A stretch of 64,000 bases of DNA, from the NCBI GenBank assembly GCA_002293685.1, contig DBDS01000006.1, positions 180,909 to 244,908 on the forward strand, given 5' to 3'. Below are positions 9,689 through 64,000 of the stretch, piece by piece. Under the pieces are notes generated by a model. That model was not told where the DNA came from. It did not search any database and saw only the letters and a list, made by a program, of their open reading frames with translations. Made by a program: the position numbers and the translations under genes. Source of the DNA: Patescibacteria group bacterium UBA926. Its GTDB lineage: Bacteria > Patescibacteriota > Doudnabacteria > UBA920. The first letter of the stretch is position 1; each line of letters begins with the position of its first letter.

Positions 9689-10321
9689 ATGAATCAGAAG
9701 AAGTTAATCACTGTTTTATCTATTGCTATCCTCGCACTCATAGTAGTGGGTTATACTTATTGGAATAATTCCAACAATAACAAGCTAGCAGAGCAGTCAC
9801 TTACGGATATATTTCCGAATAGTAATACAGTGGACAATAACAGCGCTCCTCTAAAATCATTGAACACAAACACTCAACAATCCTCCAACTCAAACCCAGC
9901 CCAAAGAGACGAGACCGCTAGCTGGAAAATTTATACTAGCTCTCAATATGGATACACAATCAAGTATCCAGAAAACTTCTCCATACAAACAGGCAGTAGC
10001 GGTCCCGGAGGTACAATCTTTACATTGGCTATTAACTCTGAACCTGTTAATACAGAAGGCGCGGGTCAGTCAAAATATCTTTGGATCGGGGTTGAGCCAA
10101 AACGCACATTATCACAATGTGAAAACTCAGAAGGCAAAATCACTATTGATGGCTACTCGGTGGAAAAATGCATCGAGCAAGGTTCATTCTTTGGACAAGG
10201 CAAAGGCATGCTAGCTAGTATCAATCACGGTAATTACTCTTATTTTTTTAGCGCAGACTACTACGACAAAAATAGTGCCACTGTAGACAAAATTATCGCT
10301 ACTTTCAGATTCATAAAATAA
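9689..10321 (+). CDS. hypothetical exported protein
   Basis: N-terminal signal/anchor helix, Asn/Ser-rich linker. Confidence 0.4.
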   Translation: MNQKKLITVLSIAILALIVVGYTYWNNSNNNKLAEQSLTDIFPNSNTVDNNSAPLKSLNTNTQQSSNSNPAQRDETASWKIYTSSQYGYTIKYPENFSIQTGSSGPGGTIFTLAINSEPVNTEGAGQSKYLWIGVEPKRTLSQCENSEGKITIDGYSVEKCIEQGSFFGQGKGMLASINHGNYSYFFSADYYDKNSATVDKIIATFRFIK

Positions 10322-60033: not shown

Positions 60034-60642
60034 CTATTCAGGTTTCAATTCGGCTTTCACAATGTATCTTTGCAGTGCCGTACCAATTGGATACGACGTC
60101 TGTAATGTTAGAATCTTTTTCCCTTTGGTATCTTGATCTAATAAATATGTGGCAGTATTCTCTGCTACAAACTTTTCGTAAACTATATATTTGAATTGCT
60201 CTGCTCTTTCGTTGGTAACAATAATCTCGGCACCAATTTCAACTTTTGGGAGCAATGCAAACACAGTTTTATAATCTCCTTTTGCAAATGCATAATCGGA
60301 AGAGTGGCCAAAGATATATGTGTTCCCGACCACACCTACAGGAGCTGTTCCCGGGTAAAGCACTACACCTCTCTGCAAGGCAGGTTGGAAGATTTCCTCC
60401 CCTACTCCATCAATGAATATAATCGGCGCGCGAATGTCTAATGTTGGAATATATAACTCATTGGCCTCCGAAACAATCTTCATTTCATCTCGTCGAATTT
60501 CTCTCTGAACCTCAGTTACGAATATTCGGTTTATATAATATCTAACTTGTTGATTAAAGTAATCAAAATTTAATAACACAAAACCAATCACCAATATACC
60601 GATAATGCCGAGAAGGATTTTTAAAATTTTACTTGGGACCAT
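60034..60642 (-). CDS. sortase-family protein with Ser in place of the catalytic Cys (TLQTSYP)
   Basis: N-terminal TM, sortase beta-barrel motifs LYIPTLDI, GNTYIFGH, LTLQTSYP, downstream conserved Arg; codon TCG confirmed on minus strand. Confidence 0.6.
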   Translation of the reverse strand: MVPSKILKILLGIIGILVIGFVLLNFDYFNQQVRYYINRIFVTEVQREIRRDEMKIVSEANELYIPTLDIRAPIIFIDGVGEEIFQPALQRGVVLYPGTAPVGVVGNTYIFGHSSDYAFAKGDYKTVFALLPKVEIGAEIIVTNERAEQFKYIVYEKFVAENTATYLLDQDTKGKKILTLQTSYPIGTALQRYIVKAELKPE

Positions 60643-60694
60643 ATATTTGTATTTATATTATATCACCTATTATTGCGGATCATGTGAGACCAAA

Positions 60695-60731
60695 AGAAAA
60701 GAACCCTATTCTTTCGAACAGGGTTCTTTTA
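60695..60731 (-). terminator. terminator downstream of LPXTG protein gene
   Basis: agaaccct attctttcgaac agggttctttt. Confidence 0.6.
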
Positions 60732-60737
60732 GATATT

Positions 60738-63700
60738 CTAGTCAGCTTTAGCGATTGAAAGTTTTGGAAGAATAATAATTCCCAAAATTGCAATGAAGCT
60801 AAATACTATTGATAACGGAGTTCCAGTTCTTGGAAGAGTTGTAACTTCTCCTAGAACTTGAGGATTCTCGTATGGAAGACCAGTAGAATCACCAGCTACA
60901 CGACCTTCATCTGGATTTGGAATTCGTGTTCCAGAGGAGCCACCGCCACCCGGGTTTCCACCACGGTCAGTTGGGTAGTTACCGAAATCTAGACCAGAGA
61001 CAGTGTAAACAATTTCAGCATGAGCAGTCTTGATTAAGCCATCCCAGAAACTAACATCTTCACCACTAGGGACTAGCTCAACCAAACCGTTTACTGCACC
61101 GGGACATGTTTCAAAAGGAACGCCCAAAGCTACAATGTACTCATTAGGAGCAGGAACTGGTTCTGTGATTTCCCAACCAGACTGCAAAACTTCACGAACA
61201 GTATGACAACCGGCTGGAAGGTTTAGAAGTTCATAATTTCCATTCACATCACTAGCACCAGATGGTTCTTCACCATCCAAAGAATCGTTGTTGTTTAAGT
61301 CGATGTATGCGATCCAGTTTTCGAGACCTAGATCAGGATCCTCGACATCATAATCACCATCATTATTTACATCATGGTAGATAGCACCCCTAATATTGTA
61401 ACCGTTTGGTTCAGTTGGGGTATCATCCTCACTGTTAACAAAATTGTATGGACCTTTGATGCCGTCAATTTGTTTATCTAAGGTCACCGAATGAAAACCT
61501 TCTGGAGAAACCTGAGTCCAACCGCTTTGATTTACTTCACGAACTTGGTAAGTACCAGTCGGTAAGTTAGCAAAAAAGTAGTTGCCTTCTGAATCTGTTA
61601 CGTCATAAGGTTCGCCATCATCTAGCGCGCCATTTTGATTCAAATCAACATAGATTGTCCAGCCAGAAGCATTGGCTTCTGTGTTTTGAACTTGCTTCTG
61701 TCCATAAATTCCATTACCACAAGTCGGCAATCCATCTTTCTTAATCAACCCGAGAATGAAGCCAATTAACTTTCCAAACTTAGAATCATACTTAAAGTCT
61801 TTTACAGTACATACCGGGTAGTTTCCAAAATCTTTATTCTTATGGTTCTTACCTGCGTCTAGAGTGTGAACAATGGTATTTGGAGCGCTTTGCATCCAAC
61901 CAGTTTTATGTTCTTCAGCAATTACTAACTCGCCTTCTAAGCCAGTGATATCAAATTCGTATTGACCCCAAATATTTGTATAATCAACATCAAGAATTTC
62001 ATAAATAGTAACTTCTAGTTCACCTGTATTGTTTGAACCAAAGGTGTCGTAAATCTGGAAGTCAGCTGGAGTTCCATCACCTGTGATTGTTGTCCAATAA
62101 GTGTGAGCAGAATTATACATTCCCCAATTTGGTGAAGAACCATCGATTTGAAGATCTAAGAGAGTTGGGCCGTAAACTTCATAGTTCTGAACTAAGTCAG
62201 TCCAGTAACCACTACTATTACGTTCTGAGTACTGAGCATCTGCTTCTATTCCATCACCGGCATCAAATGTACCAGTAACCTTCACCATGTAATCAACTGT
62301 GCTTGTTAAAGCACTAGAGCTCACTACTGGAGTATTCAAGGCAGTAACGTCAAAAGTTTCGACTTGCTTCATTAGATAAATCTTCCAGTTCCAGATTCCG
62401 TGTTCGAAGATTCCATTCTTTTTGCCGTTCTTGTTTAAATCTTTGTATTTCATACCAGAAACTTTAAATTCTGGTTCATTACAAAGCACAAGACTGACCT
62501 GAACTCCATCTACATCATAACCGTCAGTAGCATTATTGAATTTAGAGCTTGTCTTATCAGAAACATCTGTAAGTTTGATGTACTTGGCGTACTGAACAGC
62601 ACCCATTTCAACATTACGTTGTGTCTGGAAGTAGTCACCCAAATCTGTCCAAGGACCCGCCATAGACATAGCTACTTTAACATTCACCTTCTCAGGATAA
62701 TTTGCATCGGAAGGGCTACCAAAGCTTGTTTCAACAAGTTTAATATCTGTACCAGGAACATTTTGGAAGACTCCACCGAAAGATAGAATGATGCTTCCAC
62801 CGAATCCAAGGGATACAAAGTTAAGAGTATCGTTATCTTCTGCTTCGCCAAGAGCTTTGGTAGGGTCGCTACGTTCAGCTAACACAGGAGTCACTACTGG
62901 ATTCTTTTGATTTCCCTGTTTAAATTCATGATAAGCAGTAGCCCAAGCAGGACCATCTTTACAAGGCTCTGGTTCGCAAGCAGTTGTACACTTGTTTACT
63001 AAGGTGAATTTGGTGGTCTGAGCATTTACTTCTTTTTCACCGGCACCAGAGACATATTCCCAACCTTCCTTCATGATTTCATCTAAGTAGTAATCACCAA
63101 AAGGAACATTCTTAATAGTTACACAACCGTTCTCACCAGTTGTTCCCTTATAGATTGGAAAAATATCTACGGTTAGGAAACCAGAATTATCGCCGTAGTA
63201 GCTATCTAAAATCCTGAAGTCAATTTCATCACCGGCTATTAAAGTCTTGCTGGATGAATATTTATGGTTTACTAAATTCAACGGACCCCAGTTTGGATTC
63301 ACTCCGTCTACTTGAATTCCTAAGTAACCAGCCCATTCACCTGGCAAAGAATTTACATTGATCCAAGGGTTCTCGGCTGTCGCACCGAATTCTCCTGGTT
63401 CACGCTTTGTATAACCAGCATCACTGATGTCACCTGAACTTCCCGGTCGATAAACGTAAGTTCCGCTTGCTTCCAAAACATAATCACCAGCAGGTAACAC
63501 ATCAGAAGAATAAATAGTTCCATCCGGGTAAACCTTAACTGAATCAACTTCTTCACCCTTCAAGAATACTTCCCAACCTGGTAGAGGTTGCTGGGTTTTA
63601 TAATCAATCTTACATACTTCAATATCGGTCGCACAGTCTTCTTTAACAGAAACGTCATCTAAGAAACCGCCGAAAGAATCTCCAGGACCCACATCTTCAA

Positions 63701-63881
63701 ACTGGACTCGTGTTGTGGTCGAGCTTGCGATAAAGCTAAATGTGTATTCTGTCCAAACTGTTGCATCACCAGAATTCGGGATCGCTGTGGAATTCACAGT
63801 AACATCAAGATCACCTGCAGTTACTTTAATTGCATTGTTTGCAGCAACCTGACCTGGACGTGGGGATGCAGCGAAAGTCAA
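60738..63881 (-). CDS. large cell-surface protein with Cna-B/SdrD-B-like repeats and C-terminal LPRTG sorting signal (TTG start, N-terminus uncertain)
   Basis: C-terminal LPRTG + hydrophobic helix + KLSIAKAD tail; repeated GxYxV-E...GW modules. Confidence 0.6.
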   Translation of the reverse strand: MTFAASPRPGQVAANNAIKVTAGDLDVTVNSTAIPNSGDATVWTEYTFSFIASSTTTRVQFEDVGPGDSFGGFLDDVSVKEDCATDIEVCKIDYKTQQPLPGWEVFLKGEEVDSVKVYPDGTIYSSDVLPAGDYVLEASGTYVYRPGSSGDISDAGYTKREPGEFGATAENPWINVNSLPGEWAGYLGIQVDGVNPNWGPLNLVNHKYSSSKTLIAGDEIDFRILDSYYGDNSGFLTVDIFPIYKGTTGENGCVTIKNVPFGDYYLDEIMKEGWEYVSGAGEKEVNAQTTKFTLVNKCTTACEPEPCKDGPAWATAYHEFKQGNQKNPVVTPVLAERSDPTKALGEAEDNDTLNFVSLGFGGSIILSFGGVFQNVPGTDIKLVETSFGSPSDANYPEKVNVKVAMSMAGPWTDLGDYFQTQRNVEMGAVQYAKYIKLTDVSDKTSSKFNNATDGYDVDGVQVSLVLCNEPEFKVSGMKYKDLNKNGKKNGIFEHGIWNWKIYLMKQVETFDVTALNTPVVSSSALTSTVDYMVKVTGTFDAGDGIEADAQYSERNSSGYWTDLVQNYEVYGPTLLDLQIDGSSPNWGMYNSAHTYWTTITGDGTPADFQIYDTFGSNNTGELEVTIYEILDVDYTNIWGQYEFDITGLEGELVIAEEHKTGWMQSAPNTIVHTLDAGKNHKNKDFGNYPVCTVKDFKYDSKFGKLIGFILGLIKKDGLPTCGNGIYGQKQVQNTEANASGWTIYVDLNQNGALDDGEPYDVTDSEGNYFFANLPTGTYQVREVNQSGWTQVSPEGFHSVTLDKQIDGIKGPYNFVNSEDDTPTEPNGYNIRGAIYHDVNNDGDYDVEDPDLGLENWIAYIDLNNNDSLDGEEPSGASDVNGNYELLNLPAGCHTVREVLQSGWEITEPVPAPNEYIVALGVPFETCPGAVNGLVELVPSGEDVSFWDGLIKTAHAEIVYTVSGLDFGNYPTDRGGNPGGGGSSGTRIPNPDEGRVAGDSTGLPYENPQVLGEVTTLPRTGTPLSIVFSFIAILGIIILPKLSIAKAD

Positions 63882-64000
63882 AGTGTACTTCTTTCCGGCA
63901 GTTGTTGGAATATCTTGGTATAACTTTATTGATGCGTCTTCACCACTCTGTTTGATAGTTGGACCTTCCCAATCTGAATCTAATTCGGTGTACTAAGAAC

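Follow-up and report, generated by a model that had tools for sequence, protein, structure and literature searches.

Sortases are textbook cysteine transpeptidases; the cysteine is defining for family C60 of MEROPS, for inhibitor design and for the 'sortagging' toolbox. Canonical members (PF04203; MEROPS C60), such as Streptococcus pyogenes SrtA (SpySrtA; 3FN5/7S4O), Clostridium perfringens SrtD (4D70) and Thermobifida fusca SrtE (9IOK), have an eight-stranded beta-barrel and an N-terminal anchor, a histidine in strand 4, an arginine in the last strand, T-x at -1 of the nucleophile, and adjacent substrates that end in LPxTG, a hydrophobic segment and a basic tail, all of which recur in the proteins discussed below. 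A sortase family has been found in more than half of the genomes of the Candidate Phyla Radiation (CPR), with no comment on its nucleophile (Méheust et al., 2019; PMC6744442). The subject here is a sortase gene in a 64,000-nucleotide stretch of Patescibacteria group bacterium UBA926 (contig DBDS01000006.1; the whole stretch is called the window), in which a serine stands where the catalytic cysteine is expected. Judged on its sequence and on that of its relatives, the protein is probably a membrane-anchored, extracytoplasmic sortase that has remained functional, and would belong to a Patescibacteria-wide clade in which serine has replaced the catalytic cysteine. The gene and the relevant parts of its product lie at the following positions of the window:

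60034-60642, minus strand: Ser-type sortase gene, an open reading frame (ORF) of 202 aa plus stop, encoding a membrane anchor, a long helix and a beta-barrel domain
60571-60633, minus strand: N-terminal hydrophobic membrane-anchor helix, residues 4-24, sequence SKILKILLGIIGILVIGFVLL (helix 4-24 in the AlphaFold2 model)
60046-60456, minus strand: sortase catalytic domain, residues 63-199 (Pfam envelope, profile positions 1-124 of 125)
60304-60306, minus strand: His113 codon CAC in GHSSD, counterpart of the catalytic His (codon read directly)
60094-60096, minus strand: Ser183 codon TCG within T-L-Q-T-S-Y-P, at the position of the catalytic Cys (codon read; aligned on TLVTC of SpySrtA)
60067-60069, minus strand: Arg192 codon AGA, counterpart of the catalytic Arg (codon read directly)

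By predicted fold and domain model, the gene product is a sortase. It matches the Pfam Sortase model PF04203 with 72.8 bits (cut-off 26.6; E 2.7e-20) and contains LYIPTLDI, GNTYIFGH (with His113) and TLQTSYP (with Ser183). An AlphaFold2 model computed from 40 family members (mean pLDDT 90.6, pTM 0.82) has the helix at residues 4-24, a second long helix at 26-49 and then the beta-barrel, and in a Foldseek comparison with the Protein Data Bank (PDB) all 50 matches listed are sortases of classes D, C, A and E (probability 1.00, E ~1e-11 to 1e-10). The N-terminal anchor would place the catalytic domain outside the cell. When PDB chains were searched with phmmer, 'iltlqtsyp' of the protein paired with 'evtlvtctd' of SpySrtA, and this alignment puts Ser183 in the catalytic Cys column and Arg192 in the catalytic Arg column. 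Gln181, Thr182 and Ser183 are encoded by CAG-ACG-TCG, and the whole protein contains no cysteine at all. The catalytic cysteine of the cysteine transpeptidases (MEROPS C60) is thus absent, while their histidine and arginine are present. The preliminary description of the locus, which had reported a 202-aa protein with the full sortase layout and a TCG-encoded serine at the nucleophile position, is borne out on both counts. Its proposed alignment with the known families yields the Pfam and SpySrtA matches given above; the protein nevertheless falls far under the cut-off of every curated NCBIfam class model, A-F and GN: SrtD (class D) 46.3 vs. 140, class D 43.3 vs. 165, class C 30 vs. 160, class E 28.6 vs. 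160, class F 17.5 vs. 166, GN 22.8 vs. 158, and TIGR01076 29 vs. 39.35.

The serine is shared by an extensive family. The identical protein occurs on 23 contigs of NCBI, JGI, ENA and Logan assemblies. In an index of 5.8 billion proteins, 834 clusters (90% identity) match it, and the query together with the best 120 of these 834 have Ser at the nucleophile position in every case (121/121), at identities of 46-100% and within the motif L-Q-T-S-[YW]-P-x-G-T-A. An exhaustive search with phmmer, over 1.84 billion representatives of 50%-identity clusters, found 3147 matches at E<=1e-3, 1296 of which pass E<=1e-10 and 85 E<=1e-30. Among the best 150 representatives, the residue is Ser in 117 and Cys in 28 (hence Ser in 117/145, the remainder being truncated), and it is never Ala, Gly or Thr. 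The histidine is invariant (151/151), as is the arginine in all 144 relatives that have this column, and Thr at -1 of the nucleophile is conserved at 97%. The Ser-type sequences have the top scores; Cys-type sequences start at ~112 bits and predominate below ~100 bits. The statement of the preliminary description that TLxTC is universal is contradicted by this family itself.

The same holds at the level of genomes. When GTDB r232 was scanned with one genome for each species, at least 318 species genomes were found to encode a relative, and the 80 best loci, one per species genome, supplied the gene contexts discussed below. All 81 genes in these 80 loci encode Ser at this position, through the codons TCT (32), TCG (20), TCC (15), TCA (13) and AGC (1). 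An invariant serine combined with synonymous codon turnover points to purifying selection on the serine itself. The genomes with a Ser-type gene are labelled as Candidatus Doudnabacteria, Kazan, 'Saccharibacteria' and 'Patescibacteria group' metagenome-assembled genomes (MAGs), and a few relatives labelled Gammaproteobacteria or Binatia are probably mis-binned or mislabelled contigs. As far as these comparisons go, the Ser-type sortases form a large conserved clade of the Patescibacteria and are no peculiarity of the window locus. A single family member was found with AGC, where the others have TCN, for the nucleophile serine (L059:8426-8857); its lineage may have reached Ser separately, because AGY and TCN codons connect via Cys (TGY) or Thr (ACN). 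A displaced catalytic cysteine, the second way in which the preliminary description could have failed, was also considered and rejected: the catalytic domain is free of Cys in 96 of the 117 Ser-clade representatives, and the column richest in Cys, residue 108, has it in 15/117.

The nearest Cys-type relatives carry the motif L-[MIV]-T-C-[WTY]-P-x-G-T (also read as L-M-T-C-W-P-x-G-T) and share with the Ser group GHSS, PxGT, the Arg, G92, G103, G106-N107, F128, L131 and Y152. In a rough neighbor-joining tree of catalytic domains, a single clade free of Cys sequences takes in 110 of the 117 representatives with Ser, and the nucleophile motif is better conserved in the Ser clade than in its Cys sister group. 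Other residues change along with the nucleophile. Gln181 (-2) is present in 115/117 Ser-clade members and in 0/28 of the Cys group, which has Met, Ile or Val there; Asp116 (His+3) is present in 109/117, whereas the Cys group has a mixture of Asn, Asp and Tyr. Further differences of the Ser clade are Tyr/Trp184 (+1), Pro132, Ala189 and an aromatic residue at 193 that replaces the Leu after Arg. Along the sequence, these positions adjoin the triad, following the His, flanking the nucleophile or following the Arg, except for Pro132, which lies between triad residues. Gln181 or Asp116 could potentially have a catalytic role, as judged from this pattern.

One outlier, P0237, has LVTSWP and no Gln, and its nearest neighbor is a Cys enzyme. 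It might stand for an intermediate stage or for Ser having arisen a second time. At its locus (L099:3736-6771), the upstream gene encodes a PKD-domain protein of 750 aa, at the C-terminus of which ...KQTPRAGSG precedes a hydrophobic segment and a basic tail; P0237 may represent an independent Cys-to-Ser event with a different sorting motif. It also belongs to a subclade (P0147, P0164, P0173, P0179, P0187 and P0237) that has an insert of ~130-150 aa between the anchor and the sortase domain. This insert carries DTDGDGLxD / DxDxDGYxD repeats of calcium-binding-like character, with a faint TSP3_bac Pfam match in P0237.

The Ser-type genes are typically paired with a candidate substrate. In 59 of the 80 loci, a same-strand ORF of 137-1965 aa lies immediately upstream, usually with a gap of <100 bp or an overlap, and ends in LPxTG, ~20 hydrophobic residues and a basic tail. 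What the preliminary description had drawn for the window, a link to an LPRTG substrate, therefore extends to the family. The motif is LPRTG in 52 of the 59 loci, LPVTG in 5, and LPKTG and LPDTG in 1 each, the 'x' of LPxTG being almost always Arg. Across 60 cognate substrates, the motif is part of an extended signal, P(-9) x V(-7) L(-6) G(-5) A x T(-2) [E/T](-1) LPRTG x P(+2), which is kept despite greatly differing protein lengths; [VIL]LG occurs within 16 residues upstream of the motif in 49/60, mostly at -7 to -5. To our knowledge, no extended sorting signal of the kind PxVLGAxT[ET]LPRTG has been described for other sortase classes. A comparison of enzymes linked to LPRTG with those linked to LPVTG revealed no convincing specificity position, Leu63 differing weakly; in the same enzyme-substrate covariation comparison, the enzymes of the division and cell wall (dcw) type differ at residue 110.

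These dcw-type enzymes are encoded at nine loci that have no adjacent substrate and in which the Ser-sortase gene lies between murG and murC, in the Pfam-confirmed order murD-ftsW-murG-[srt]-murC-ftsQ (L026, L051, L055, L062, L065, L071, L075, L076 and L080, at ~position 10000 in each). The nine include the complete Kazan genome CP011216.1 and the chromosome OY968788.1. At five loci, the Ser-sortase gene lies downstream of uvrA, and in three of these a small LPRTG protein is encoded between the two. In one case (L072:8948-10516), substrate and enzyme are fused in a single ORF, which reads substrate ... ELPRTG-AGAAYLLLVNLPLLFM-RRLKK-[sortase transmembrane (TM) segment]-catalytic domain, and the same succession of substrate, LPRTG, TM, basic stretch, TM and sortase is found in the database clusters P0128, P0132 and P0152. 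If these fusions are real, the enzyme would have its substrate in cis. Locus L039 (8588-11971) carries a tandem cassette of a 454-aa LPRTG protein, a Ser-sortase, a 112-aa LPRTG ORF and a second Ser-sortase with a long basic N-terminal extension.

The Cys-type relatives occupy other positions. P0224, P0238 and P0258 lie directly after rplJ-rplL and have no LPxTG neighbor (L087:6803-8615, L090:3747-5521 and L093:6831-8621); this slot appears conserved and housekeeping-like in several lineages. In a synteny search for it, rplJ and rplL were not found in the window or in the Ser-type loci. A further Cys relative, P0251, has the cassette of a large LPxTG protein followed by a sortase, the 1248-aa protein ending in LPTTG, so the pairing of a substrate with a dedicated sortase is older than the Cys-to-Ser switch and was retained through it. 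An hmmsearch with the family profile detected no second, Cys-type sortase in the 64-kb window, and there is none within ~10 kb on either side of the 80 related loci.

A mechanism can be proposed from these data. The enzyme would bind the PxVLGAxT[ET]-LPRTG signal of a surface protein whose hydrophobic C-terminal segment and basic tail keep it in the membrane. Ser183, activated by His113 as a general base, would then attack the Thr-Gly bond to give an acyl-(oxy)ester intermediate. The clade-specific Asp116 may orient His113, and Arg192, perhaps along with the clade-specific Gln181, would stabilize the intermediate. Finally, the intermediate could be resolved by an amine, either from lipid II, the peptidoglycan precursor, or from the wall itself, leaving the protein anchored. 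That serine is the nucleophile, that transpeptidation prevails over hydrolysis, and the identity of the acceptor are points we infer from the sequences. The whole of this proposal, i.e., a Ser-His-Arg site with helper Gln and Asp residues that cuts at VLGxxT[ET]-LPRTG, anchors proteins to peptidoglycan precursors by thiol-free chemistry and is encoded by a murG-murC housekeeping gene in some lineages, has in our view only slightly better than an even chance of being correct.

Of the two options that the preliminary description left standing, a serine transpeptidase or a pseudo-sortase retained with its substrate, both are compatible with the observations, and the evidence appears to lean toward the active enzyme. 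An active enzyme is suggested because the Ser, His and Arg are invariant and the neighboring residues have changed in a coordinated way, unlike in a decaying pseudoenzyme, and because the gene is paired with substrates that have a conserved signal, is placed in a lipid II operon and is found fused to substrates. Several points weigh against it. Oxyesters are less prone to aminolysis than thioesters, and hydrolysis instead of transpeptidation is therefore possible. The activity of S. aureus SrtA C184S 'decreased dramatically' (PMC4827206), so that a natural clade would need additional changes, for which the co-varying residues are candidates and no proof. A Cys sortase elsewhere in the same genomes, beyond the neighborhoods scanned, could do the real processing, and conservation of the sorting signal would be equally expected of a protein that only binds it. 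The last three of these points also favor a catalytically dead sorting-signal binder (a holdase, retention factor, regulator or scaffold), for which the pairing with LPRTG would mean binding and no cleavage: Cys-to-Ser mutants of SrtA lose most of their activity (PMC4827206), a binding-only role would likewise conserve the motif and the groove residues, and Cys-type relatives are common in other Patescibacteria. However, pseudoenzymes usually show relaxation of their remaining catalytic residues, and here the His and Arg are invariant. The replaced position is always Ser over >100 diverged clusters and in all Ser codon families, the nucleophile motif is tighter than in the Cys sister group, and the murG-murC placement and substrate fusions fit a wall-assembly enzyme better than a passive binder. 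We therefore regard a dead binder as unlikely, if still worth serious consideration.

A Ser-His hydrolase, which would cleave LPRT|G and thereby shed or mature the surface protein, or would use a non-peptidoglycan acceptor, draws on conservation evidence identical to that for the active transpeptidase. General enzymology holds that oxyester acyl-enzymes favor hydrolysis relative to thioesters, and many of the substrates are very large proteins with Ig-like domains that could act at a distance. On the other hand, the nine loci with the lipid II enzymes murG and murC point to a peptidoglycan-precursor partner, and the serine DD-transpeptidases (penicillin-binding proteins, PBPs) transpeptidate efficiently via Ser acyl-enzymes; sequence data do not separate hydrolysis from transfer. 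Such a hydrolase seems to us a slimmer prospect still than the dead binder. A sequencing or assembly error, or a recent strain-private inactivating mutation in an enzyme that is truly of the Cys type, would take no more than a single-base change from TGY to TCY or AGY. This explanation was rejected, and we give it almost no credence: the 23 contigs with the identical protein come from independent assemblies, Ser is constant over 120 + 117 + 81 relatives that use five codons for it, and the TCG codon of the window is two changes away from TGY. Both findings that the preliminary description had named as refutations, a sequencing error and a catalytic Cys elsewhere, thus fail to materialize, the serine recurring in diverged relatives and no column of the domain being Cys-rich.

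The candidate substrate in the window has a history of its own. The features of its gene, and of the interval between it and the sortase gene, are:

60738-63881, minus strand: surface-protein 3' fragment, 1047 codons of a ~1555-codon gene, with SpaA/prealbumin-like and CarboxypepD_reg domains
60741-60863, minus strand: C-terminal sorting signal PQVLGEVTT-LPRTG-TP, hydrophobic segment and KLSIAKAD, with LPRTG at 60822-60836
63993-63995, minus strand: in-frame TAG interrupting the surface-protein gene; CAG (Gln) in a sister assembly, GCA_022842405.1
60697-60730, minus strand: terminator-like hairpin between the surface-protein ORF and the sortase gene, a 15-pair stem followed by CTTTTGG (consensus scan only)

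The preliminary description had presented the upstream gene as a 1047-aa, Cna-B/SdrD-B-like protein and a canonical sortase substrate. Its C-terminus agrees with that, as LPRTG is followed by 27 residues that make up a hydrophobic segment and the tail KLSIAKAD. The domains recognized in it are SpaA/prealbumin-like and CarboxypepD_reg, the SdrD_B score of 26.9 being just below the cut-off of 29.7. The ORF is not the whole gene, though. From stop to stop it reaches 63992, the preceding stop being the TAG at 63993-63995; the earliest start codon available to it is an internal TTG, a signal peptide is lacking, and at its N-terminus a choice-of-anchor C domain is matched only in the second half. 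In longer contigs of the same lineage, a 469-codon ORF with a signal-anchor (…AVFVTVFSLAFSSFVPTNFALA), most of which lies beyond the window end, is in frame across the single TAG, and the intact orthologue matches DUF642 across this junction. That orthologue is found in GCA_022842405.1, which encodes a 100% identical sortase and has CAG at the codon in question and an intact surface-protein gene of 1550 aa (L002:6648-6650 vs. L001). The TAG is present in four assemblies and the CAG in one. Due to the in-frame TAG, the cognate substrate is probably not made as a full-length exported protein in the window strain, where the sortase gene is intact. The difference could be a recent pseudogenization or a population-level on/off polymorphism of the surface protein. 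Readthrough by an amber-suppressor tRNA was considered and rejected, as the window contains no tRNA genes and this gene itself normally ends in TAG.

Since the hairpin at 60697-60730 directly follows the stop of the surface-protein gene, the sortase gene is probably transcribed separately, likely from its own promoter; a promoter scan gave no clear consensus promoter for it. The cassette is located just downstream of the ribosomal cluster rpsM-rpsK-rpsD-rpoA-rplQ-rplM-rpsI.

If the Ser clade is active, sortases are not exclusively cysteine enzymes: the fold can run acyl transfer through an oxyester intermediate, and a thiol-free chemistry has evolved naturally in the Doudnabacteria and their relatives and in Kazan. 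In that case, a possible recipe for nucleophile conversion could be read from the co-varying residues, among them Gln at -2 and Asp at His+3, and the clade might become a source of ligases that are insensitive to oxidation and recognize a new, longer tag. A clade without catalytic activity would instead be the first widespread pseudoenzyme among the sortases, and its retention alongside its ligands, even in a cell-wall operon, would call for an explanation of its own. Either outcome touches on the question of how the Patescibacteria, ultra-small bacteria that are uncultivated and hardly studied, build the surface with which they attach to hosts.

Precedents for an exchange of Ser and Cys nucleophiles exist in other folds, unrelated to that of the sortases. 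Among the PA-clan proteases, chymotrypsin uses Ser and the picornaviral 3C protease Cys; among the enzymes of peptidoglycan cross-linking, DD-transpeptidases use Ser and LD-transpeptidases Cys. These cases show that activity can survive a change of nucleophile within a fold, and that transpeptidation onto peptidoglycan amines can proceed through a Ser acyl-enzyme. We know of no description of such a natural exchange for the sortase fold, and a natural Ser-type sortase was not described in the full-text literature searched, which misses most papers in subscription journals.

Compared with the canonical sortases, the Ser clade has Ser for Cys, Gln in place of a hydrophobic residue at -2 and GHSSD as its His motif, and its substrates carry the extended PxVLGAxT[ET]LPRTG signal with a near-fixed Arg. 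The Cys-type sortases of the Patescibacteria (P0224, P0238, P0251 and P0258) are closer, with 34-45% identity, equal length, the anchor and GHSS/PxGT/R, but they keep the Cys and the hydrophobic residue at -2, and several follow rplJ-rplL. The same single-residue replacement of the nucleophile has been engineered in S. aureus SrtA (C184S) and in S. pyogenes Spy0129 (C221S), and these laboratory Cys-to-Ser mutants serve as strongly impaired or inactive controls (PMC4827206; PMC3019223). The natural Ser clade differs from them in its co-varying neighboring residues and in the long-term purifying selection to which its serine appears to have been subject.

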